64,000 nt of DNA from an uncultured Clostridium sp. (GTDB taxonomy: Bacteria; Bacillota; Clostridia; TANB77; CAG-508). Made by a program: the position numbers and the translations under genes. This document shows positions 8,703-43,392 of the stretch, piece by piece. Under the pieces are notes generated by a model. The model worked only from the letters and a program-made list of their open reading frames with translations. It had not been told where the DNA came from and searched no databases. The stretch lies in assembly GCA_947165355.1 (NCBI GenBank), contig CAMUZZ010000001.1, forward strand, positions 2,067-66,066. Reading direction: 5' to 3'. How positions within the stretch are numbered: the first letter of the stretch is position 1; the number at the start of each line of letters is the position of its first letter.

Positions 8703-10067
8703 CTATTTGAACAAATTGTTTGCTCCGCCAATAGATGAAATATAAGCTTCGGTTGCCTTTCCAATATTTTTAACCGTGTCCGCATGACCTTTTTTAATTG
8801 TATAATCCTGGGTAATTACTACAAGCAGATATTGTCCATCTACTATAGCACAATCAGCTGCTGACGTATAGTTTCCATCAGACCACCCAGACTTATGCAA
8901 ATAGGTATGCTTACCCGACATCCACATTGTAATGTAGCAGTATAACGTGTTTTTCAAATAAGTTTCTAATGATTTGGCATACTTTGCACTACTGTTAATG
9001 TAGTTCCAAATGTACAACCATTCATGATACCGCTGCATTACTGTTGCAGACCCGTATTGAAGATATGCAACTGATCCATCAGAAGTTTGGTACGCTAAGT
9101 TTGCACCTCCAATTTTAGCAAGCCAGTTATTAAACTTTTCGAGCCTTTTAGTTGTAGCAGTTTCTGGAGAAAACCTTCTAACCAGGATATTGTATCCTGT
9201 GTTATCGCTATGGTACAACAAAACTCTTAATATTTCGGCAATTGAATATTCAGAACCTATTGGATCATTCTTAATAACTCCACTTCCTGTATTTTTATCA
9301 GCTTTAGTGTAAGTTAATTTTTCTGACCAAATACTAATTCCTTGTGCCTCGCATTCTTCTAGTACAAAGCAAGCAAATGCTGCTTTAACTGTGCATGCGC
9401 TTGAAATAAGTTTGTTTTCGTTGTACACATATCCGTTTTTTCCATCAAGAGAAAATAATCCAACGCCAATTACAATATTTGGATATTTTTTCTTCTCGCT
9501 CTCTACCACTTGCATTATTTTTTGAGGTAACGCCTTAGTTGTTATGCCAGGAGCAATATTACCTGTTGAAATGCTTGTTGTAGTAGCTTTTGTTGTTGCT
9601 ACAGTAGAAGCTGTAGTTACTGCTGATGTAAGCTTTGAAGTTACTGCAGACTCAGATGGCAAAGTTGCCAACGAGTTTTGTAAACTGCTTGATGTTTGCG
9701 ATTGAAAATTTGATGTTTTACTTTCAGTACTTGCTATTATTTGCGCGCTCGTACCTATAGCCATCGTACTTGTTACTTCTGCCTGTGTTGTCACTTTTTC
9801 TGTGACTTCTGTTGTTGAAATTGCAGTGCTGCTGGTTGATTTTTGGATTGTACTTGTACCGTATGTTTGCATGTTTTGTGTGGTGCTTGATTCAATTTGA
9901 TTTATTACCATTACATCGTTTGGATCATAAACCAAAAGCTCTCCAGAGCCATCCCGTAAGGAACGTTGCTGAATAGTAGCTAAAACAAGAAGTACCACGG
10001 TAATTAACCATAAACTTGCGGTAAAAAATAAAATCCACATTATTCGCCGTTTCAACTTTGCTTTCAT
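8703..10067 (-). CDS. Membrane-anchored class A beta-lactamase-fold protein with a long Ser/Thr-rich linker. CTVK where STFK is expected.
   Basis: N-terminal TM, about 120-aa S/T-rich low-complexity region, then SDN (YHSDNTG) and KSG (HKSGW) motifs at class A spacing. The first motif reads SSACTVK. Confidence 0.6.
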   Translation of the reverse strand: MKAKLKRRIMWILFFTASLWLITVVLLVLATIQQRSLRDGSGELLVYDPNDVMVINQIESSTTQNMQTYGTSTIQKSTSSTAISTTEVTEKVTTQAEVTSTMAIGTSAQIIASTESKTSNFQSQTSSSLQNSLATLPSESAVTSKLTSAVTTASTVATTKATTTSISTGNIAPGITTKALPQKIMQVVESEKKKYPNIVIGVGLFSLDGKNGYVYNENKLISSACTVKAAFACFVLEECEAQGISIWSEKLTYTKADKNTGSGVIKNDPIGSEYSIAEILRVLLYHSDNTGYNILVRRFSPETATTKRLEKFNNWLAKIGGANLAYQTSDGSVAYLQYGSATVMQRYHEWLYIWNYINSSAKYAKSLETYLKNTLYCYITMWMSGKHTYLHKSGWSDGNYTSAADCAIVDGQYLLVVITQDYTIKKGHADTVKNIGKATEAYISSIGGANNLFK

Positions 10068-29060: not shown

Positions 29061-31124
<2,064 letters not shown>

Positions 31125-31130
31125 TTAGTG

Positions 31131-31229
31131 CCTTACTGGTCGCATATGTTATTAAACTAGTAAATATGTTTTAGTTGAAACAATTTAAGTAACTCTAAGC
31201 ATAATTTGTACATACTCCCAAACTGCGCG
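31131..31229 (-). repeat. Copy B of a roughly 98-nt intergenic element (minus orientation), upstream of ligA
   Basis: Read on the minus strand: CGCGCAGTTTGGGAGTATGTACAAAT ... TTTAATAACATATGCGACCAGTAAGG. About 70% identical overall to copy A at 37575..37672, with near-identical ends. TATAAAT lies 7 nt upstream. Confidence 0.6.
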
Positions 31230-31270
31230 TCATTTGATTTATATATACTTTATTAACATCCATACTTTAG

Positions 31271-31906
31271 TTATTTCATGTCCTTTAGTAATTTCTTTCC
31301 ACCTTTTATGTAGTCATAGCCTGAGAAAATTGTTGCAACTACAGACATTAAAAGTAATACGGTAGCAATTACATTTATTGCTAAATATAGTCCGCCTATG
31401 TTGCCTTGTGTAAATTTAAAAAATCCATGCATATCAACCAAAGCAAATCCTATTCCAACCATTTGGGTTACAGTTTTTATTTTTCCCCATACTGAAGCTG
31501 CAATAACCTCTCCCGATTTTTCAACCGCAATTAATCTATATCCAGAAACTACAAATTCTCTGAATAGCACAATAATAGGAATCCATGCAGGAAGTCTACT
31601 AGATTCTACTAGCATAATCATTGCTGCTAATACTAGTATTTTATCGGCAATTGGATCTAAAAACTTTCCAAATGTTGTAACTTGATTTTTCGATCTTGCT
31701 AGGTATCCGTCAAGTTTGTCTGTTATTGAAGCAATTATAAATATTATATCCACAAGTATCCATGTTAATGGAATATCAAAAAAAGCTCCTTGTATTGGTA
31801 AAAATGGAATAATTACCATAATTGGCACCAATATTATTCTAAAAACTGTTAGTTTATTTGGTAAATTCATACTATAACCTCTCTTATAAAATTTGATTGT
31901 TTGCAC
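31271..31906 (-). CDS. pgsA: CDP-diacylglycerol--glycerol-3-phosphate 3-phosphatidyltransferase
   Basis: CDP-alcohol phosphatidyltransferase motif D(x)2DG(x)2AR...G...D (DKLDGYLAR). Confidence 0.8.
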   Translation of the reverse strand: MQTIKFYKRGYSMNLPNKLTVFRIILVPIMVIIPFLPIQGAFFDIPLTWILVDIIFIIASITDKLDGYLARSKNQVTTFGKFLDPIADKILVLAAMIMLVESSRLPAWIPIIVLFREFVVSGYRLIAVEKSGEVIAASVWGKIKTVTQMVGIGFALVDMHGFFKFTQGNIGGLYLAINVIATVLLLMSVVATIFSGYDYIKGGKKLLKDMK

Positions 31907-32204
31907 TTAACTTAATAATTAAGTCCATGTTATCATCGTTTGCAGCTTTGTTTTTTCTTATGTTTCCACATTTCTTGCACTTAAAAACAATAACATAACC
32001 TTTTTTTGGACTTATTTCTACTCCAATTGGCTCAAGCATTCCATGGCAACTTTCAGCTCTGTCACCTGGATTTACATCCACATGTTTCGAATGCAAACAA
32101 TATGGACAATGGTTTCTACAAGTATAACCCAATTTTGAAACCTTTTTTCCACAATTTTCGCATATAAATTCTTCATCTATTTTTGTAAAAATGCTTTTTT
32201 CCAT
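31884..32204 (-). CDS. RNHCP-domain zinc-ribbon protein
   Basis: Literal RNHCPYC and CENCG/CKKCG cysteine pairs. Confidence 0.6.
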   Translation of the reverse strand: MEKSIFTKIDEEFICENCGKKVSKLGYTCRNHCPYCLHSKHVDVNPGDRAESCHGMLEPIGVEISPKKGYVIVFKCKKCGNIRKNKAANDDNMDLIIKLSANNQIL

Positions 32205-32219
32205 GTAATACTCCTTTTA

Positions 32220-33860
32220 CTATTTATCTTCGTAAAATATACTTCCTCCAATAAATTCTCTTAGTAGAGAATTATTTGGAACATACTCTGGTGGTATTGG
32301 TTGGAAGTATTCTAATAATGATAATAGCTTTTTGGCTTCAGAGTATTCATAATTTGAATTATCAATTTCTTTTAATAATGGCTCAGCATAATTTTTAAGT
32401 ACAGAAAGCTCATAAATTAGAGATGAATTAAACATACTATCTGCTTGCTCTTGGAATGGGAATATATTGTTTCTTTCCCCTCTATTTACAGATTCCCACA
32501 TTTTTAAAGTATGTAATGCAGAATATCCTCTAAATTGATGATCTCTTACTATTCTTCTTATAAGTCTTGTATCGGTTGTAGATATTCTGTTGTTGTAATC
32601 TTGATTTAACACTGTTAAACAACTAATGTATATTTTATATTTTTGATCTTTAGGAATTAATGGAGTAAGTTTATCGTTTAAGCAATGAATTCCTTCAATT
32701 ACAAGAATTTGATCATCTTTTAATCTCATCTTTTCTCCATTGTATTCTTTTCTTCCAACTTCAAAATTAAATGTTGGAACGTCTATTTCATCGCCATTTA
32801 AAAGTTTAAGAATATGATTGTTAAATAGCTCTGTATCAATTGCTTCTATACATTCGAAATCATATTCACCATTTTCATCTTTAGGGTTTTGAGGTCTTTC
32901 AACAAAATAATTATCTACAGACATTGTTACTGGTTTTAACCCGTTAAGTCTTAAATGAATTCCTAATCTGTGAGCAAATGTTGTTTTTCCAGAAGATGAT
33001 GGTCCTGCAATTAAAACAACCCTTACTCTTTCTCTTTTTACTATGTCGTCTGCAATTTGCGCCATTTTTTTCTCATGTAAAGCTTCATCAAGCAATATAA
33101 ATTCTTTTATTTTATCTCTTTTAATTATTCTATTTAATTTGTACAAAGTTTGAATGTGAAGTGTTTGGTGAACTCTTTCGTACTCATCAAGAGTTTCAAG
33201 TAATTTAATATTTTCTTCAAACTCTGGTAGCTTTGTTATGTCTTTTCTACTAGGATATCTTATTAAAATTCCACCATGGTATTTTTCTATTTTGTATATT
33301 TTAGCAAAACCAGTTGTAATTGGTAATACACCGTAAAAGTAGTTGTAGTAATCTTCGCAGTAATACAAACTAACCTCATCTTTATTACCATCTACAATTT
33401 GCAATCTTCCTTTTTCATTTTTTTCTACTTCATAGAATTCCTTTGCTTCCTTCTTTGTCATTTTCTTTTTTGTAATTGGCAAATTCTTATCAACAATATC
33501 CTTAAATTTTATGTTTATTTTTTCAATCATTTCGTCTGTAACAGGTTCATTAACAACTTCAAACAACATTGAATTTGATAGCTGATAATTAATTACTGTT
33601 TTTACATCTGGATATAATGCTTCGAAAGCCTTAGAAAGTATGTATATTAGACCTCTAACATATATTCTCATTCCATCTTTGTTTTTAGCATCTATTAATT
33701 CTATGGTTCCATTGCCAGTTATTTCGTAATTTAAAGATTTTACTTCGTTATTAAATCTGCACGCAATCGCATTTTTACTTTCAATCTCATCTTTAAATAA
33801 ATCTATAACTTTAATGGCTTCTGTTTCTATCTTTTTTCCATCATAAAAAACCTCTATCAT
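32220..33860 (-). CDS. Nucleoside/uridine kinase-family P-loop protein fused to an N-terminal TGS-like domain
   Basis: Walker A GPSSSGKTT with PRK/uridine-kinase-like core; about 230-aa N-terminal extension. Confidence 0.6.
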   Translation of the reverse strand: MIEVFYDGKKIETEAIKVIDLFKDEIESKNAIACRFNNEVKSLNYEITGNGTIELIDAKNKDGMRIYVRGLIYILSKAFEALYPDVKTVINYQLSNSMLFEVVNEPVTDEMIEKINIKFKDIVDKNLPITKKKMTKKEAKEFYEVEKNEKGRLQIVDGNKDEVSLYYCEDYYNYFYGVLPITTGFAKIYKIEKYHGGILIRYPSRKDITKLPEFEENIKLLETLDEYERVHQTLHIQTLYKLNRIIKRDKIKEFILLDEALHEKKMAQIADDIVKRERVRVVLIAGPSSSGKTTFAHRLGIHLRLNGLKPVTMSVDNYFVERPQNPKDENGEYDFECIEAIDTELFNNHILKLLNGDEIDVPTFNFEVGRKEYNGEKMRLKDDQILVIEGIHCLNDKLTPLIPKDQKYKIYISCLTVLNQDYNNRISTTDTRLIRRIVRDHQFRGYSALHTLKMWESVNRGERNNIFPFQEQADSMFNSSLIYELSVLKNYAEPLLKEIDNSNYEYSEAKKLLSLLEYFQPIPPEYVPNNSLLREFIGGSIFYEDK

Positions 33861-33973
33861 ATAACCTCCACTTATATGTTTTTGATTAATGCCAGCCCAT
33901 CCCTACATAGCCAAAATCAATTAGTATAACTGGCATTGTCATTGTATATCTATATTTTTTTTTAGTCAAGTAA

Positions 33974-34003
33974 TTGACAATAATATTCAAGTTGTATTAT
34001 GAT
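33974..34003 (+). promoter_or_regulatory. SigA-type promoter (TTGACA-17/18-TATGAT) with overlapping GTCAA-N5-TTGAC palindrome
   Basis: Consensus -35 box and TG-extended -10 about 30 nt upstream of the AGGAGG RBS of the zinc-ribbon gene. Confidence 0.45.
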
Positions 34004-34031
34004 ATACATATCAAAAAAAGGAGGATTTATT

Positions 34032-34658
34032 ATGAGTAAAATTTGTGAAAAATGCGGTACAGAATTACAAGATACAGACAAAAAATGTCCAAATTGTAAT
34101 GCTGATGTTGAAGTTAAAAAAACAACTGAGGATGTTGAAGTTAATAAAGCTACTACAACAAAAAGTAATTTATTAAGCGATAAGAAAACACTAACAATAA
34201 TTGGTATTGCAGCAGCTGCTGTTTTATTGGTTGTTATTCTTTTAGTTGTTGCTTTAAGTGGTGGTTATAAAAAACCAATTAAAAACTATTTCAAAGGTTC
34301 ACAAACATATAATGCAAAAACTATAGTAAAAGCTTTCCCAACATTCATGAAGGACGATAAGCTAGATAAATATGATGAAGACTATATGGAAGACTTTAAA
34401 GAAGATTTAGAAAAAGAATATGGAAAAAGAGTTAAATACGACTACAAAATCATAGGAAAAATAAAATTAGAAAAAGAAGACCTAGAAAAAGCACAAAAAT
34501 CATTAGAGAAAAAATATGATGATGTAAAAATTAAAGTTACAGACGGATACCAATTATGCTTACAAATAAAAATTAAAGGATCTGAAGATCATGAAGAATA
34601 CTTCTATCCATACAGCGTATACAAAGTTAACGGAAAATGGTGCTTAATAAGTGAATAA
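34032..34658 (+). CDS. Zinc-ribbon membrane-anchored protein
   Basis: CEKCG...CPNCN zinc ribbon, TM helix, Lys/Asp-rich extracellular domain. Start at 34032 after AAAGGAGGA. Confidence 0.6.
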   Translation: MSKICEKCGTELQDTDKKCPNCNADVEVKKTTEDVEVNKATTTKSNLLSDKKTLTIIGIAAAAVLLVVILLVVALSGGYKKPIKNYFKGSQTYNAKTIVKAFPTFMKDDKLDKYDEDYMEDFKEDLEKEYGKRVKYDYKIIGKIKLEKEDLEKAQKSLEKKYDDVKIKVTDGYQLCLQIKIKGSEDHEEYFYPYSVYKVNGKWCLISE

Positions 34659-34772
34659 TACATAAAGAACCAGGAAAACCTGGTTCTTTTTTTACTTTTA
34701 TAATTATTATTGCTTTGCTCATTATTACATTCATCTATAACTTTTCTTTATATATGCTGCAATATTTTTTAA

Positions 34773-37400
34773 CTAAGATAGCTTTTCTTTAATTTTAACC
34801 AATGTGTTAAGAGCATCAATTGGAGTTAGTTGATTAAAATCTATTTTATCAATTTCATGTGCCACCTCTGCTATTTTAAAGTTATAGTTAACATCTTGCT
34901 CTGCTACCTGCTTTGGCTCTGAAATACCGCTTGCAATATTTATTTTATTGTATGCAATATTTTTTCTTTCAAGACTTTGTAGTATTTCATTTGCTTTTGC
35001 TGTAACTACCTGTGGAACCCCTGCTAGTTTAGCAACATGAACTCCGTAGCTTTCGTCTGTTCCACCATTTACAATTTTTCTTAAGAATACTATATCTTCT
35101 CCCTTTTCTTTAACTGCAATTGAGTAATTTTTTACTCCTTCTATCTTTTCTTCTAATTCAGTTAGTTCGTGATAATGTGTTGCAAATAATGTTTTAGCTC
35201 CGCATTTTTCTTTATCAGCAATATATTCAGCAACTGCCCATGCAATTGAAAGTCCATCGTACGTTGAAGTTCCCCTACCTATTTCATCTAGAATAACCAA
35301 ACTATTTTGTGTTGCTTCTTTTAAAATTGTTGCAACCTCCATCATTTCAACCATAAATGTACTTTGACCCATGCTTAAATCATCTGATGCACCAACTCTT
35401 GTAAATATTTTGTCAACAACGCCAATTCTTGCAGAACTTGCTGGTACAAAACTTCCAACTTGTGCCATCAAAGTTATTAAAGCTACTTGCCTCATAAAAG
35501 TTGATTTTCCAGCCATATTAGGCCCTGTTATTATTGCCAACCTGTTTTCATTTTTATCTAAATATGTATCGTTTGGAACAAAATTATTAGATGTAATCAT
35601 CTTTTCGATTACAGGGTGTCTTCCATCTTTTATATCTATTATTCCTTCTTCGTCAACACTTGGTTTTACATAGTTCATGTCTTCAGCAACATTTGCAAAA
35701 GATGTTAAAACATCTAGCGTTGATATTAAGTTTGCCGTTTTTTGAACCCTTTGAATTTCTTTTTCAATAGAATCCCTTATTTCACAAAAAGCATTGTATT
35801 CTAAAATAACAACTCTTTCTTCTGCACCTAAAATTTGATTTTCTAAGTTCTTAAGATCTTCTGTTATATATCTTTCTGCATTTGCTAAAGTTTGCTTACG
35901 AATATATCGTTCTGGAACCATTGATAAATTTGACTTTGTAACTTCTATAAAATATCCAAATACTTTGTTAAAACCAACTTTTAATCCTTTAATTCCAGTT
36001 GCTTCTCGCTCTTTATTCTCTAGGTCTATTATCCACTTTTTACCCTCAGTTGTAGCTTTTTTTAATGTGTCTATTTCATCATTGTAACCAATTTTAATTA
36101 TTCCTCCATCTTTAACACCAATTGGAGGTTCATCAACTATTGATTTTTCAATTATTTCGTATATATCTTCTAACGCATCTAGTCCTTCACAAATTCCGAC
36201 TAACATTTTACTTTTAGCACTAGCTAATACTTTTTTAATATCTGGTAACTGTTTTACAGAATTTTTTAGAGATATTAAATCCCTTCCATTAGCACTTCCA
36301 TAAGATATTTTTCCTGCAAGTCTTTCTATGTCATATACTTTTTTTAGTGACTCTATTAAATCTCCTCTTAACATTATAGAGTCTTTTAGCTCTTGTACTG
36401 CATCAAGTCTACCATTTATTTCGTTTATATCTATTAATGGATCATTAAGCCATCTTCTTAATAAACGACCACCCATTGATGTAGACGTTTTATCTAAAAC
36501 CCATAGAAGAGTTCCTTTTTTAGATTTATCACGCATCTTTTCGGTAATTTCCAAATTTCTTCTTGCATTTATATCTAGTGCCATATAACGAGTAGTATTA
36601 TATATTTTTATTGTATTAATATGATCTAAGCTTGTTTTTTGAGTATCTTCTAAATATCTTAGTAATGCATTTATAGAGTATATTGCAAGCTTTTTCTCTG
36701 GTAGTTTGTTATCTTGTATTTTCTCATTTTTATCATCAACAATTTTGTACATTCCAGATAGTAGCTCAAATTCTCCATCAAAGGCATCTTCGTCCTCTTT
36801 TGAAATATATGTATCAAAACGTTCTTTTATCTTTTCAATTTCAGTTTTGCTACTAAACATCATGTCTGAAACTATAATTTCTGCTGGAGAAAATCTTGCA
36901 ATTTCATCAAGCAACCTTTCAAAATTATTGTTTTCCATTATTTGAGTTGACAAAAATTCACCTGTTGAAACATCACAAACACTAATTCCAAAATACAATC
37001 CGTTTTTGTAAATTGACATTATATAGTTGTTTTTCTTTTCTTCTAAAAGGTTTGATTCCATTACAGTTCCTGGTGTAACTACCCTAACAACCTCTCTTTT
37101 AACAATTCCTTTTGCTGTTTTAGGATCCTCTACTTGCTCGCATATTGCTACTTTGTATCCCTTTTCAATAAGCTTTGCAATATAGCCTTCGGCTGCATGA
37201 TATGGAATTCCAGACATAGGAGCTCTTTTTTCTTGGCCGCAATCTTTTCCTGTTAATGTTAGCTCAAGCTCTCTTGAAACAATTTCGGCGTCATCGTAGA
37301 ACATTTCGTAAAAGTCGCCTAATCTATAGAATAAAACACAGTCATTATACTGTTTTTTTGTATCTAAATAATGTTGCATCATAGGTGAAAATTCTGCCAT
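34773..37400 (-). CDS. mutS: DNA mismatch repair protein MutS
   Basis: GPNMAGKSTFMRQ Walker A, ST(F/Y)MxEM, DEIGRGTSTYDG; full domain complement. Confidence 0.95.
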   Translation of the reverse strand: MAEFSPMMQHYLDTKKQYNDCVLFYRLGDFYEMFYDDAEIVSRELELTLTGKDCGQEKRAPMSGIPYHAAEGYIAKLIEKGYKVAICEQVEDPKTAKGIVKREVVRVVTPGTVMESNLLEEKKNNYIMSIYKNGLYFGISVCDVSTGEFLSTQIMENNNFERLLDEIARFSPAEIIVSDMMFSSKTEIEKIKERFDTYISKEDEDAFDGEFELLSGMYKIVDDKNEKIQDNKLPEKKLAIYSINALLRYLEDTQKTSLDHINTIKIYNTTRYMALDINARRNLEITEKMRDKSKKGTLLWVLDKTSTSMGGRLLRRWLNDPLIDINEINGRLDAVQELKDSIMLRGDLIESLKKVYDIERLAGKISYGSANGRDLISLKNSVKQLPDIKKVLASAKSKMLVGICEGLDALEDIYEIIEKSIVDEPPIGVKDGGIIKIGYNDEIDTLKKATTEGKKWIIDLENKEREATGIKGLKVGFNKVFGYFIEVTKSNLSMVPERYIRKQTLANAERYITEDLKNLENQILGAEERVVILEYNAFCEIRDSIEKEIQRVQKTANLISTLDVLTSFANVAEDMNYVKPSVDEEGIIDIKDGRHPVIEKMITSNNFVPNDTYLDKNENRLAIITGPNMAGKSTFMRQVALITLMAQVGSFVPASSARIGVVDKIFTRVGASDDLSMGQSTFMVEMMEVATILKEATQNSLVILDEIGRGTSTYDGLSIAWAVAEYIADKEKCGAKTLFATHYHELTELEEKIEGVKNYSIAVKEKGEDIVFLRKIVNGGTDESYGVHVAKLAGVPQVVTAKANEILQSLERKNIAYNKINIASGISEPKQVAEQDVNYNFKIAEVAHEIDKIDFNQLTPIDALNTLVKIKEKLS

Positions 37401-37502
37401 TTGATTACCTCTTTCTTTATTTCACATTGTTATTTCTAGCAGCCATTCTATATCATTTTTCGCACTTTTTCAACAAATTTTTAAATAAAAATAAGTCAAT
37501 GC

Positions 37503-37749
37503 GGTCGGTTCTGTTTGACACAAATCTAGAAACTTTACCAAAACAAAAAAAGATAGATACATATAAATGAAAACCGCGCAGTTTGGGAGCATGTATAAAT
37601 ATAATTTAAAGTTTATTAAATATTTACATTAAAATATATTTATTGCTTTAATAACAAATGCGACCAGTAAGGTTTGAATGGTTATGTATCTATCTTTTTT
37701 AGTTTTGAATTTTTTAAAGTACCCCAATTTTTGTCAAACAGAACCGTCC
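37503..37749. mobile_element. Roughly 250-bp structure with about 65-bp imperfect terminal inverted repeats enclosing copy A of the 98-nt element (MITE-like candidate)
   Basis: IR-L 37503-37567 and IR-R 37681-37749. They share GG(T/A)CGGTTCTGTTTGACA (17/18 match) and AAAAAAGATAGATACATA (18/18) in inverted orientation. Centre 37575-37672 is copy A (CGCGCAGTTTGGGAGCATGTATAAAT...AATGCGACCAGTAAGG). Confidence 0.5.
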
Positions 37750-37762
37750 CTAATGACTCTCA

Positions 37763-39139
37763 TTAACTTATTTTTCCTTTTAAGTACCACATGTGCTCTG
37801 ATACTATTTCAAGATTTGTCATGCTTCCAATTAAACTTTCATCTCCTTCAAAGTTTACTACTTTGTTAGAATCGGTTCTTCCAGTTAGCATTTCATCGTT
37901 GTTTTTACTTTTTCCTTCTACCAATACTTTTTGTATTGTTCCTACATATTTTTTGTTATTCTCGTCTATTTGACTTTCAACAAGAGCTTTTAATCTATCA
38001 AATCTTTTATGCTTTACGTCTTCAGGAATTTGGTTTGGCATCTTATCTCCTGGTGTACCAACCCTTCTTGAATATATAAACATATATACTTGCTCAAAAT
38101 TAACTTTTCGTACAACATCTAATGTGTCTTCGAAGTCTTCTTCAGTTTCGCCAGGAAATCCTACTATAATGTCTGTTGATAAAGTTAAATTTGGTATTGT
38201 AGATTTCATTTTATCTACCAAACTTAAAAATTGCTCTTTTGTATATTTTCTATTCATAATTTTTAAAACAGCAGAGCTTCCAGATTGCAATGGTAAATGA
38301 ACTAATTTGCACACTTTCTCACAATCTCTAATTGCTTCTATTACATCATCTGTAAAATCCTTTGGATGTGGAGAAATAAATCTTATTCTCTCGATTCCAG
38401 AAATTTTGTTTACAGCTCTCAGTAATTCTGAAAACTTATTTATTCCTAAATTTCCATTTCCTTTGTATGAATTCACATTTTGTCCCAAAAGCGTTACTTC
38501 TTTATATCCGCTTCTTGCTAACTCTTCAACCTCATTTATAATGTCTTCAGGATCACGGCTACGCTCTCTACCACGAACATAAGGTACTATACAATAACTA
38601 CAGAAATTGTTGCATCCATTCATAATCGTAACAGAAGCTTTTATTGTATCATTTCTTTTTATTGGAAGGCCTTCAATAACCTCACCATCTATATCTAAGA
38701 TGTCCATTATTTTTTCTTTGTTACATAAAACGTTGTATAAATCTTCTGGCAACTTATGAAGAGTATGTGTTCCAAATATTATATCTACATAGTTATAGCT
38801 TTGTTTTATTTTATCAACAATATGTTTTTCCTGCATCATACAACCACATATTGCAATAACTGTTCCATTTTTCTCGCGAAGTCTTTTAACTTCTCCAAGT
38901 TTACCAAAAAGTTTATCTTCAGCATTTTCACGAACGCAACATGTGTTAAATATTATGAAATTTGATTCGTTAATATTATCAGTTTTTGTATACCCCATTG
39001 ACTCAAGCATGCCACATATCTTTTCCGAATCATTTTCATTTAATTGGCAACCCATTGTAAAAATTGTATATTTTAAATTTTTGCCAGCATTTAATCCATT
39101 AACTTTTTCTATAAAATCTCTCTGATTTCCTATATCCAA
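37763..39139 (-). CDS. miaB: tRNA (N6-isopentenyladenosine37) methylthiotransferase MiaB
   Basis: MTTase N-terminal cysteine cluster, radical SAM CxxxCxxC (CNNFCSYC), TRAM domain. Confidence 0.9.
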   Translation of the reverse strand: MDIGNQRDFIEKVNGLNAGKNLKYTIFTMGCQLNENDSEKICGMLESMGYTKTDNINESNFIIFNTCCVRENAEDKLFGKLGEVKRLREKNGTVIAICGCMMQEKHIVDKIKQSYNYVDIIFGTHTLHKLPEDLYNVLCNKEKIMDILDIDGEVIEGLPIKRNDTIKASVTIMNGCNNFCSYCIVPYVRGRERSRDPEDIINEVEELARSGYKEVTLLGQNVNSYKGNGNLGINKFSELLRAVNKISGIERIRFISPHPKDFTDDVIEAIRDCEKVCKLVHLPLQSGSSAVLKIMNRKYTKEQFLSLVDKMKSTIPNLTLSTDIIVGFPGETEEDFEDTLDVVRKVNFEQVYMFIYSRRVGTPGDKMPNQIPEDVKHKRFDRLKALVESQIDENNKKYVGTIQKVLVEGKSKNNDEMLTGRTDSNKVVNFEGDESLIGSMTNLEIVSEHMWYLKGKIS

Positions 39140-39333: not shown

Positions 39334-42300
39334 CTACTCAGCTAATTGTGGTTTTATTAATATTTCAAATTCTTTTTCTAGTCCTTCAGCAGAGATTTTT
39401 ACTTTGTTATAACCTACTTTCACATTGTTTTTATCATATGAAACCTCATAGTTATCGACTTTGGCATATATACCATTTCCATATTTTGCTTCAACAATCA
39501 TGCCATCAAAGTTTATTTCTCCTCGTGTAAATCTGTCATTATCTGGTAATTTAGCAATTCTTAATTCTATAGGCTTTATAGTATCTGACTCTTTTAGTAT
39601 GTACGTTACATCATCATCGTCCCTAATAACATATACTTTACTGTTATTGCTTACTCTTGTTTTAGATGGAATATCTCTATTCATCTTTTTTCCATCAATT
39701 TCTAGTACATATCTTTTTAATTCCATTGAATATAAGAAAATCTCTTTGTTAGCTGGTACTAATAAATCTTGTTCCGCAATATTTAGTCTTATATTTTCTG
39801 GAAGAGCATCAAGTTCTTCCTTTGTATATAATTCACCATACACATCAGCAAAAACATCAATATTCTTTGAAACATTATTAAAATTATAATCACCTTTTTG
39901 AATTTTTCCTAGATCAATTGCTATGCCATTTCTTACAGAACTAATTTTACTTAAATCAATTTTATTTCCTTCAACCCTATAACGCCTAATTCCAGGAAGT
40001 GCGAAAAACTCGCTTGTTTCATCCGCATTACAATAGCTAATATCTAATTTCCATAAACTTGGTAGTTCATCTAACTTGCTAATGTTTCTTTCTACTTTAT
40101 TATTTGCTAAAGATAGCTGCTTAATACTCTCATTTTTAGTTGGGAGCATATTTACATCTACAATGTTGCAGTTGTCTACATTTAAAACAACTATATATTT
40201 ATCATTTAATGATCTAAAATCACTTATATTATTACCACTTAAATTTAAGTTTCTTATTTCATCAACATCATCTAAAAACGATAAATTTGTTATTTGATTA
40301 TTAGCTAAATTCAAATTGTATAAAGACTTCTTAAAACAAGTAAATCCAGATGTATTACAATCTGATAAGTCTAAATATGTTATTTCGTTCATATTCAAAC
40401 TGTTAAGATCTTTAATATTTTTATTGCCTGCCAAGGATAAAGTAACAATTTTTGGTAGTTGATTTACATATTGAATGCTTTCAACGTTACAATTTGCAAT
40501 GTTTAATACTATTAAGTTTTTACAATTTTCGTATCCTTTAACATTTTCATTATTTTCCAATTGTAAGTTCTCTAGGCTGCTTAAAGACCCCAAAGAAGAT
40601 ACATCGGATACATTATTATTTCTTAAATCTAAATATGTTAGCTTTTTACAATTTGCAAGTGGAGTAACATCTGTAATATTATTATTTCTAGCATCTATGC
40701 CTTCCAAATTCTTTAAATACTCTATTCCTTTTAAGGATATTGCATTTTTATTTGCTATTGATATAACAGTAATATCATTTAACGTATCTTCGTTTATGTA
40801 ATCAACTCCATTAACTGTCCATGTTTGGTATTCATCTTTTATGGCATCTTCTATGGCTTTATTACCTATTTCTGATAACTTGAATCCATCTGCACCAACT
40901 TTTACAACTCCGTTCATATTTCTGTTTATAAACTCATCTTCATATGAAACATATAAACATCCTTTATCTCCCCAATTTTCTCCCCATGAGTTTAAGCATA
41001 TATATGCACCATTTTTTTCTGGCACCTTTCCACTTTCAGATTTAAATTTCTCTTTTGGATAATCATCATCCCATCCAATGACTGAAATACAATGACTTGA
41101 TGCTCTAGTACTACTATCAGTTCTATAAATGTTAACACCACTACATACAATACTTGCAGTAACCGATCCATAATTCATTATATGTCTTTTTACTATATTT
41201 TGGTATTCATTAAACTTTTGGTTTCCAACTTCTGATTTTGTAAAATCGGGAAATTCAACCGTATCTATATTTCCAATATCTACTGTGTCTACATTGAAAA
41301 ACACATTATATTCATCCTCTTTGTAGTCTTTATACTTTAATGTATCTTCCTTAGCTAGAGCTCCACTTCCATTTACATAGTCTCTCCATGTATCAAATCC
41401 TCCACCTGTGTGCAAATTTCTTCCTAAACCAGAACCCAATTCTTCAGATGTCATATAGTCTACATATATTTCAGAAAAATCATAATCTTCATTTTGTGTT
41501 AACGCTAAGTTTGTTTCTAAGGCTGTATTTGAGGCGAAGTTCCAGCATAACCCAAATCCAGCTTGATTTTCTACTTTAACATTAATTTTATCTCTTAAAT
41601 CAAATTTTCCTGGTAAAACCTTGTTTTCTGCCTTTTCGGTAGGATTATTGTTGTTATTTACTTCATTTTTTGTTTCATTATTATTTGTGTTACTGTTTTC
41701 GTTGTTATTTACGTTATTATTCACATTGTTGTTTACGCCGTTATTTACGTTATTATTCACATTGTTGTTTACGCCGTTATTTACATTATTATTTACATTA
41801 TTGTTTACGCTGTTATTTACATTATTGTTTACGTTATTATTTACATTATTGTTTACGTTGTTATTTATATTATTGTTTACGTTGTTATTTATATTATTGT
41901 TTACGTTGTTATTTACGTTATTATTTACATTGTTATTTTCGTTGTTATTTACGTTATTATTCACATTATTGTTTGAGTTATTAGCTATTTCATTTGTGTT
42001 GTTACCTTCATTATTATTTTGTTTTATATCAGGGCTTGATTCTTTTTCTACCTCTTTTAGCTCACCTAAGTCTTCATCCTGATCTTTTTTTATTATCTCA
42101 AATTCAGCTTCATCTACTTTTTTCTTTCTTGGTATAGATTCAATATCCTTCTTTTGGTCATCCGGCATACTCACATAATGTTTGTACTCATCTGTGTAAT
42201 TACGTTCATCAAGTTTTTCTTTAATAATTTCAGCTGTATCTTCTCCTTTTTTCTCGGCTTCCTCAATTTCATCTTGCATTATTACAGCACGCCTTGTGTT

Positions 42301-42546
42301 CTCATCTTTAATTTTTTCTGCTAAATAAAGCTCTTTTTCTTTCTTAGCGTTATATTCCAGTGTTTGATATGTTTGGTCTGAAGTAGTAATCTTGTTTAGA
42401 ATCGATTTAGTTATCAAAAAACTAAGTAAAAACAAGATTAATCCAACTATAATAACTATTATAGCAATTAATCCTTTTCTTGATTTCTTTTTTTCCATTA
42501 ACTTACCTCCTATATTTTCTCGCTTTTGTATATACATTTTACTCAA
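39334..42546 (-). CDS. Large membrane-anchored surface protein: Asn-rich repeat linker, papain-like C1 cysteine peptidase domain, leucine-rich repeats, C-terminal Ig-like domain
   Basis: N-terminal TM anchor; (NNNV)n run; QAGFGLCWNFA (catalytic Cys), SSHCISVIGWDD (His), NSWGENWGDKGC (Asn-Trp) motifs; about 12 LRR units (L..L.L..N.I.D). Confidence 0.8.
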   Translation of the reverse strand: MSKMYIQKRENIGGKLMEKKKSRKGLIAIIVIIVGLILFLLSFLITKSILNKITTSDQTYQTLEYNAKKEKELYLAEKIKDENTRRAVIMQDEIEEAEKKGEDTAEIIKEKLDERNYTDEYKHYVSMPDDQKKDIESIPRKKKVDEAEFEIIKKDQDEDLGELKEVEKESSPDIKQNNNEGNNTNEIANNSNNNVNNNVNNNENNNVNNNVNNNVNNNINNNVNNNINNNVNNNVNNNVNNNVNNSVNNNVNNNVNNGVNNNVNNNVNNGVNNNVNNNVNNNENSNTNNNETKNEVNNNNNPTEKAENKVLPGKFDLRDKINVKVENQAGFGLCWNFASNTALETNLALTQNEDYDFSEIYVDYMTSEELGSGLGRNLHTGGGFDTWRDYVNGSGALAKEDTLKYKDYKEDEYNVFFNVDTVDIGNIDTVEFPDFTKSEVGNQKFNEYQNIVKRHIMNYGSVTASIVCSGVNIYRTDSSTRASSHCISVIGWDDDYPKEKFKSESGKVPEKNGAYICLNSWGENWGDKGCLYVSYEDEFINRNMNGVVKVGADGFKLSEIGNKAIEDAIKDEYQTWTVNGVDYINEDTLNDITVISIANKNAISLKGIEYLKNLEGIDARNNNITDVTPLANCKKLTYLDLRNNNVSDVSSLGSLSSLENLQLENNENVKGYENCKNLIVLNIANCNVESIQYVNQLPKIVTLSLAGNKNIKDLNSLNMNEITYLDLSDCNTSGFTCFKKSLYNLNLANNQITNLSFLDDVDEIRNLNLSGNNISDFRSLNDKYIVVLNVDNCNIVDVNMLPTKNESIKQLSLANNKVERNISKLDELPSLWKLDISYCNADETSEFFALPGIRRYRVEGNKIDLSKISSVRNGIAIDLGKIQKGDYNFNNVSKNIDVFADVYGELYTKEELDALPENIRLNIAEQDLLVPANKEIFLYSMELKRYVLEIDGKKMNRDIPSKTRVSNNSKVYVIRDDDDVTYILKESDTIKPIELRIAKLPDNDRFTRGEINFDGMIVEAKYGNGIYAKVDNYEVSYDKNNVKVGYNKVKISAEGLEKEFEILIKPQLAE
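41650..42010. repeat. Imperfect 12/24-nt tandem repeats encoding the Asn-rich (NNNVNNNV...) linker
   Basis: Unit GTTGTTATTTAC-GTTATTATTCAC and variants repeated about 25 times. Also generates the spurious plus-strand ORFs 41621..42082 and 41670..41984. Confidence 0.8.
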
Positions 42547-43317: not shown

Positions 43318-43392
43318 AGGGGTATAGTGTTAATGGTAGCACATCAGTCTCCAAAACTGCCTGTGAGGGTTCGAGTCCTTCTACCCCTGCCA
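43318..43392 (+). tRNA. trnW: tRNA-Trp (anticodon CCA)
   Basis: Cloverleaf: acceptor AGGGGTA/TACCCCT, D-arm GTGT..GCAC with GG loop, anticodon loop CUCCAAA, T-arm GAGGG-TTCGAGT-CCTTC, encoded CCA end. Confidence 0.85.

Follow-up and report, generated by a model that had tools for sequence, protein, structure and literature searches.

A small non-coding repeat with two invariant boxes that comes and goes between genes in uncultured low-GC gut Clostridia

The two related segments found between pgsA and ligA and between miaB and mutS in the window (the whole 64-kb stretch of DNA analysed here, with a G+C content of 29.6%) are genuine copies of one small non-coding repeat whose presence in intergenic spacers comes and goes. 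The best reading of our results is that they belong to a repeat family undescribed before, a new family of the MITE/ERIC/BOX kind that is unrelated to these elements in sequence and that is limited, so far, to one clade of uncultured low-GC gut Clostridia. Window included, we found the family at nine distinct intergenic loci, in carrier Clostridia of 25-31% GC. Its members display a characteristic conservation pattern and complementary arms, orthologous sites are found empty, one filled/empty pair is clean, and the neighbouring genes have no consistent function. A dispersed repeat family is thereby newly documented in abundant uncultured gut Clostridia. Such repeats reshape intergenic regions, including essential operon spacers such as that of rpoB-rpoC, create long RNA hairpins, and can be used as strain markers.

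The two copies in the window and their neighbours

Both copies, hereafter c1 and c2, lie at the positions and in the opposite orientations that the preliminary description had given them (Table 1). The shared ends that it had reported are also there: the exact 15-mers CGCGCAGTTTGGGAG (5′) and ATGCGACCAGTAAGG (3′) are common to the two copies. The first occurs in exactly two places in the 64-kb window (31215-31229 on the minus strand and 37575-37589 on the plus strand), where about 0.17 matches are expected by chance with 3 mismatches allowed, and the second likewise in exactly two (31131-31145, minus; 37658-37672, plus). The only other near-match to the 5′ box in the window, with 3 mismatches, is the antisense of the anticodon arm of a tRNA-Trp gene, and we judged it to be due to chance. 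The identity between the copies, estimated earlier at about 70%, proved slightly higher, at 81% over the core and 74% in its centre, and TATAAAT is indeed found 6-7 nt 5′ of CGCG in both.

The inverted repeats flanking each copy had been overlooked. Those of c1 are 21 nt long, and those of c2 form a palindrome of about 290 bp overall (about 37483-37775). Folding of 37490-37765 gives −86.6 kcal/mol with a z-score of −10.7; the whole unit found upstream of htpG in a relative (L022) has a z-score of −3.2.

Table 1. Positions of the two copies, of their parts and of other features of the window
Feature	Position	Strand	Remark
c1 core, 5′ box to 3′ box	31131..31229	-	between pgsA-like stop (31271) and ligA ATG (31058)
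c1 5′ box GCGCAGTTTGGGAG	31215..31228	-	
c1 3′ box GCGACCAGTAAG	31132..31143	-	
c1 upstream inverted-repeat arm	31238..31258		pairs with 31101-31121 (21 nt, 81% complementary)
c1 downstream inverted-repeat arm	31101..31121		
c2 core	37575..37672	+	between MiaB/RimO-like methylthiotransferase stop (37763) and mutS start (37400)
c2 5′ box GCGCAGTTTGGGAG	37576..37589	+	
c2 3′ box GCGACCAGTAAG	37660..37671	+	
c2 left palindrome arm	37483..37575		inner 37539-37575; outer includes GGTTCTGTTTGACA at 37507-37520
c2 right palindrome arm	37671..37775		inner 37671-37707; outer includes TGTCAAACAGAACC at 37732-37745
hemW-like/asp23 spacer, empty site	56690..56840	-	family member there in L028, none in window
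ligA	29061..31058	-	
mutS	34773..37400	-	
mutS promoter-like site	37445..37473		
Hairpin with T-runs on both strands	34664..34689		between zinc-ribbon gene and mutS 3′ end
Gene for 1070-aa protein	39334..42546	-	
tRNA-Trp (CCA)	43318..43392	+	
6S (SsrS) RNA gene	61419..61604	-	

The assignments of ligA and mutS were correct; the position of the ligA ATG is taken from the sister contigs. A location 5′ of both genes had been claimed. In detail, c1 lies 72 nt 5′ of the ligA ATG, inside the pgsA-ligA gene pair and co-oriented with both genes. As for c2, it points away from mutS, being antisense to both of its neighbours, and it is placed upstream of a mutS promoter-like site that is conserved in a relative without the element. 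Metagenome contigs of sister strains (L001-L005) carry both copies at the same places. At the other end of mutS lies a GC-containing hairpin of 11 perfect base pairs, which resembles a terminator acting in both directions.

No frame or start codon is kept across the family, in agreement with the absence of a conserved ORF stated in the preliminary description. The micro-frame beginning MYK, which it had mentioned as the only frame, was rejected: its ATG is ATA in one sister strain (L001), the frame is not the same from copy to copy, and an ATG is missing from most copies of the gut clade.

Conservation of the unit and the possibility of an RNA

Across the family only two blocks are invariant, a 14-nt 5′ box, GCGCAGTTTGGRAG, and a 12-nt 3′ box, GCGACCAG(Y)AA (GCGACCAGYAA). 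The 5′ box varies only by R at position 12, and by its last G, which is T in one sister strain. The two boxes are always found together, in constant order and with their starts 79-86 nt apart; no solitary box was seen in the 318 kb of AT-rich DNA examined. They belong to an asymmetric core of about 110 nt, which is flanked in every copy by AT-rich inverted-repeat arms of 16-90 bp, for a unit of about 160-290 bp. The centre between the boxes is poorly conserved. Identity in the boxes is 0.98-1.00 across clades and 0.95-1.00 among gut-clade paralogues; the corresponding values are 0.58-0.61 and 0.88-0.90 for the arms, and 0.55 and 0.67 for the centre. When orthologous rpoB-rpoC copies are compared (e.g. 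L021 and L041), 4 substitutions are found in the approximately 66 nt of the centre and 2 in approximately 230 nt of arms and flanking spacer, small numbers which hint that the centre of the element evolves faster than its surroundings.

The arm sequences differ by lineage yet stay complementary, with perfect runs of 16-27 bp. In a fixed register, 65% of the cells are paired, versus 55% in shuffles, and the covariation score is 0.242, versus 0.112; none of the 500 shuffles was as high for either measure. The arm pair nearest the boxes is UA in six sequences, AU in two and CG in two, and is never unpaired, while purine-purine mismatches occupy two other arm positions in every sequence or almost every one. 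The count of wobble pairs in the arms, about 5 on the forward and 4 on the reverse strand, is uninformative as to the strand. In the gut clade, the conserved unit of about 190 nt runs from GTAGAGTAGTG... to ...GGAACGGCTT and exceeds the inverted repeats by 10-13 nt, so the repeats are not strictly terminal. ‘Empty’ palindromes, that is, arms without a core, were not encountered among the collected loci. In all copies an A/T hexamer, which is −10-like and is part of the inverted-repeat arm, ends 6-8 nt 5′ of (C/G)GCGCAG.

Such an anatomy brings to mind small non-coding RNAs encoded by a gene family, or the scaffold of an RNP; the arms would be the terminal stem joining both boxes. Transcription would perhaps start from the −10-like hexamer in the left arm or come from read-through, with trimming by RNase III. 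Pairing between the boxes could take the form UUGG-GA-GC / GC-GA-CCAG, tandem G.A pairs included, and a conserved protein would bind the paired boxes, the variable centre of fixed length providing the specificity. We consider this reading unlikely, albeit one to be taken seriously. Boxes that are invariant and of fixed spacing while all else drifts, a covarying stem enclosing them with conserved G.A and A.G mismatches alongside, and an A/T hexamer always at the same distance before (C/G)GCGCAG would all suit it. Moreover, the two boxes are joined to each other by RNAalifold, and again in the minimum-energy fold of sequences that include the arms; their U.G and tandem G.A pairs are specific to one strand, the one that runs with the genes at 8 of the 9 loci. 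However, this box-box pairing consists of six invariant pairs with no compensatory change and thus brings no support from covariation; indeed, when compensatory changes between copies were checked, only the outer arms were found to covary. The core folds no better than shuffled sequences (eleven z-scores from −2.3 to +1.8, with a mean near 0), and the complementarity of the boxes to the centre is at chance level. The element has no −35 element and no intrinsic terminator, a promoter scan was empty at both c1 and c2, and the centres match neither neighbouring DNA nor known phages. Furthermore, a functional RNA gene would not usually be present in one strain and absent from another, or be missing from orthologous sites.

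The databases of known RNAs do not favour an RNA gene either, as no Rfam model matches the family. With 4227 models, the element gave no match at gathering score in the window and nothing at E < 10 over 30900-37900, and short stretches of L022 and L009 gave only scattered matches, far below the gathering score, on the opposite strand or in the flanks. ARAGORN found no tRNA or tmRNA at c1 or c2. The preliminary description had proposed a small-RNA candidate; with the Rfam scan negative and a folding signal absent from the core, we hold a role as RNA to be unlikely but conceivable.

Several more specific proposals were tried and abandoned. A likeness to tRNA (the 5′ box recalling a D-arm, and the 3′ box containing ACCA) allowed no cloverleaf to be drawn and found no support from the tools used. 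Pairing of the 5′ box with an internal anti-box (CCAAACU-like) failed the shuffle test in every sequence (p = 0.07-0.88); one apparently compensatory change in this candidate pairing separates the two tandem copies of L009. Pairing of the 3′ box with the preceding ACUAGUC is at chance level, and so are the 15 nt over which the c1 centre complements the pgsA-like gene (37 of 100 shuffles). As for a CRISPR-like or guide unit, searches with the centres gave nothing significant in the 4 kb to each side of them or among 50,697 phage records, and no cas, tnpB or iscB-like genes are adjacent to the copies.

Loci, hosts and empty sites

The family was delimited with a two-box pattern scan, run over one genome per species and over metagenomes. 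The former yielded two true relatives with exact-box matches, both Clostridia MAGs, one from a water-deer cecum (L007) and one from Hadza human-gut samples (L009). The latter yielded 16 AT-rich gut contigs with family members, the matches in GC-rich contigs being due to chance. Copies beyond those of the window, of which the preliminary description had allowed that there might be none, were thus searched for and found. Its suggestion of a species-specific repeat was right as to the repeat family and wrong as to the species, the same boxes being present in several related uncultured Clostridia lineages at non-orthologous loci. The Asp23 and HtpG identities of 84-92% place the carriers in one clade of uncultured Clostridia. 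Viral, phage and plasmid collections yielded no family copies, and the nine matches of a looser pattern in viruses are all chance occurrences in GC-rich DNA. A literature search with the box sequences returned unrelated primer and tRNA sequences only.

The number of exact-box copies looks low, about 2-5 per genome. Two copies are found on one 252-kb contig (L035 and L041) and two in another single assembly (L021 and L040). In L009, positions 130-520 hold two tandem copies with a period of about 170 nt and then a truncated third, in which the left flank is joined directly to CTTTCACAC and the 5′ box is deleted.

Besides pgsA > ligA (c1) and miaB / mutS (c2), the loci are the rpoB-rpoC spacer, inside the operon (L021, L041), M23 peptidase > htpG (L022), hemW-like > asp23 (L028), and the regions upstream of a SpmA-like gene, of a P-type ATPase gene, of a holin-like gene and of a Clp ATPase gene, the last with the tandem copies. 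This list does away with the tie to DNA repair and replication genes that the first two copies had suggested: with rpoB-rpoC, htpG, asp23, the Clp ATPase gene and others as neighbours of the further copies, the adjacency to ligA and mutS is a coincidence, and the tempting lead of a shared regulatory RNA for these two genes is false and was dropped. At 8 of the 9 loci the element has the same orientation as the downstream gene (binomial p about 0.04).

Could the boxes nevertheless be a double-stranded DNA site for a host regulator or nucleoid protein, defining a stress or DNA-repair regulon? The boxes do resemble each other in direct orientation, and they could be read as two direct half-sites (GCG..CAGTWWGG) about 84 bp, or 8 helical turns, apart on bendable AT-rich DNA, their constant spacing being near a whole number of turns. 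Several neighbours are stress-related (htpG, the Clp ATPase gene, asp23, ligA and mutS). However, the same genes are found in close relatives without the element, neighbours such as rpoC and the P-type ATPase, holin-like and SpmA-like genes leave no common function, and one copy sits inside the rpoB-rpoC operon. In addition, a CIRCE-like operator and a promoter belonging to htpG are already present between the element and this gene, and such a site would leave the complementary arms unexplained. We therefore hold a regulator site to be improbable. The htpG promoter region just mentioned (L022 about 9720-9790; also in L057 and L060) contains TTAGCACTC-N9-CTTTGCTAA, an inverted repeat resembling CIRCE, the HrcA operator, which overlaps a TTGACT −35 element. 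Motif look-alikes picked out by eye (IS6-like arm, CIRCE, CtsR, boxA, RCR-origin) were either not conserved across the family or without BLAST support.

Co-orientation with the downstream gene at 8 of the 9 loci, the two tandem copies upstream of the Clp ATPase gene and the 72 nt between c1 and the ligA start might also call for a cis-regulatory leader (riboswitch, thermometer or attenuator) of the gene that follows. The position of the element relative to promoters already largely refutes this, the c2, htpG and asp23 copies lying upstream of the next gene's own promoter. Moreover, c2 is antisense to both its neighbours, no fold of the core is conserved, the genes that follow are unrelated to one another, and their orthologues in relatives do without the element, all of which makes a leader very improbable.

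The same is true of an inverton, in which a recombinase would flip the core between the inverted repeats and so account for the opposite orientations of c1 and c2. Near-perfect inverted repeats do surround a short segment, and copies from one genome have nearly the same arms, as a shared recombinase would lead one to expect. But the core has a single orientation relative to its unique flanks in 17 of 17 gut-clade contigs and in all sister-strain contigs, the segment to be inverted, approximately 120 bp between the arms, would be very small, the strongest conservation is inside the segment and not in the repeats, and no recombinase gene is next to any copy. Inversion of the core thus seems to us scarcely credible.

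The turnover of the element is best seen from sites without it. Relatives with 77-84% PgsA identity have the same gene order and no copy or relic anywhere in the loci examined. The pgsA-ligA spacer is 72 nt long in L045 and L046, and the miaB-mutS spacer 40 nt in L048-L050, in both cases too short for the element; unrelated DNA occupies the spacers in L047 and the miaB-mutS region in L044-L046. These last three have 84% PgsA identity, and what they carry between miaB and mutS is a pair of DUF4160/DUF2442 genes (e.g. L045 3820-4336); the spacer seems to be an insertion hotspot. In relatives with 89-90% HtpG identity the htpG site, too, lacks the element.

The clean filled/empty pair is that of L028 and L051 at asp23. 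The two sequences are 97.4-98.6% identical on both sides, and in L028 a further 249 bp, with a full unit among them, are set exactly at the junction of GAATTTATAT and AAAAAAATAAATTCC, where the hemW-like gene has its stop codon. The same site is empty in L051-L053, whose Asp23 is 99% identical, in L054-L056 and in the window (Table 1). The empty target is a small AT-rich palindrome, GAATTTAT/ATAAATTC, and the L028 insert lies in its loop, flanked by an imperfect AT-rich duplication of 9-10 nt (AATTTATAT / AATTATATTT); at the other copies we saw no clear target duplication. The insert has no inverted termini and carries about 60 nt that are absent from the other paralogues. Given this short imperfect duplication and the unshared 60 nt, replacement of an allele through recombination may also be the origin of the difference. 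A gene of the PDDEXK_2/Rpn family (recombination-promoting nuclease-like) is found at 447-1268 in L051, a few kb from the empty site. Concerning the surroundings of other copies, c2 and the rpoB-rpoC copy are at the centre of palindromes that run on into flanking DNA, and the htpG copy is about 40 nt past a classical terminator.

Probable mobility, and likeness to known repeats

Taken together, c1 and c2 are probably non-autonomous, mobile, palindromic intergenic repeats of the MITE/ERIC/BOX/Correia kind, a reading we prefer with some reserve. In size, the units of 160-290 bp without coding capacity agree with MITEs, and so does their dispersal over nine non-orthologous loci with presence or absence among close relatives. 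On this reading the element would enter and leave the gaps between genes, landing as a rule directly behind a stop codon or a terminator, ahead of the promoter that follows, or else in operon spacers that tolerate it; at least one landing site, that documented in L028, appears to be the loop of a pre-existing AT-rich hairpin. The invariant boxes may be the recognition sites of a trans-acting protein (a transposase, a recombinase, a nuclease or a conserved host factor), which would act on the folded or synapsed element. Where the element is co-transcribed, its arms should form a long AU-rich RNA hairpin, a possible substrate of RNase III, and any effects on neighbours such as ligA and mutS would be a by-product of this hairpin.

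Some features are mildly unusual for such a repeat, namely that conservation is highest in two boxes which are internal, not inverted and set at a constant distance from each other, the apparently low copy number, and the orientation bias. The combination of invariant internal boxes and drifting arms fits recognition by a host factor, or a role at the RNA level, at least as well as recognition by a transposase, and the bias of orientation with the genes is not predicted by a purely selfish DNA element. These three features keep alive a minority reading, that of a folded unit of RNA or single-stranded DNA read by a conserved factor. The element would then be of an undescribed kind: either an RNA or ssDNA hairpin read by a host factor (a new RNP scaffold whose centre gives the specificity), or a new non-autonomous class that targets hairpin loops and has internal direct recognition sites. 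We deem this rather doubtful. Whichever protein or mechanism moves or reads the element, the internal invariant boxes, the fixed spacing and the drifting arms offer a handle for finding it.

Among known repeats, the enterobacterial repetitive intergenic consensus (ERIC, or IRU) has much in common with the family. Both are imperfect palindromes of more than 100 bp, non-coding, strictly intergenic and often inside transcription units; both have low to moderate copy numbers and sites that are not orthologous between related genera; and both have a conserved core sequence and would give a long RNA hairpin if transcribed. However, there is no relation in sequence, and the host clade, low-GC Clostridia, is different. 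ERIC has a conserved central inverted repeat, whereas the centre of the present family is asymmetric, poorly conserved, about 110 nt long and bounded by the two invariant boxes, with arms that differ between lineages.

The BOX elements of Streptococcus pneumoniae share with the family a modular build, with conserved ends that can pair around a variable middle, and an intergenic, non-coding and dispersed nature; both may act through RNA structure. The middle of BOX varies by the copy number of a 45-nt module, and more than 100 copies are present per genome. In contrast, the middle of our family has a fixed length and a variable sequence, and there are only a few copies.

Classical MITEs (Correia/NEMIS, RUP, bcr1) are likewise small and non-coding, with inverted repeats, strain-level presence or absence and insertion near gene ends. 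In typical MITEs the terminal repeats are the best conserved part, whereas here the best-conserved parts are the two internal, non-inverted boxes; we also found no clear target-site duplication for the family, its repeats are not strictly terminal, and its copies, about 2-5 per genome with exact boxes, are fewer than in the classical MITE families. The outer arms of c2 begin with GGTTCTGTT..., which we take to resemble the terminal repeats of the IS6 family (IS257/IS1216), a likeness that received no support from BLAST against plasmids.

The one resolved insertion, that of L028 in the loop of a small palindrome at a gene end, is reminiscent of mobile elements that target hairpins. These include IS1397 and ISKpn1 in the loops of REP sequences, members of the IS110 family in REP or attC sites, and class C group II introns after terminators. 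Such elements are 1-2 kb long and encode their own enzyme, whereas the unit described here is 0.2-0.3 kb long and has no ORF, and the htpG copy lies beyond a terminator, not inside it.

Elsewhere in the window (Table 1), the 6S RNA gene is full-length, with 98.2 bits against a gathering score of 46.4, and the 1070-aa protein encoded beyond c2 combines a papain-family (C1) protease domain with leucine-rich repeats.
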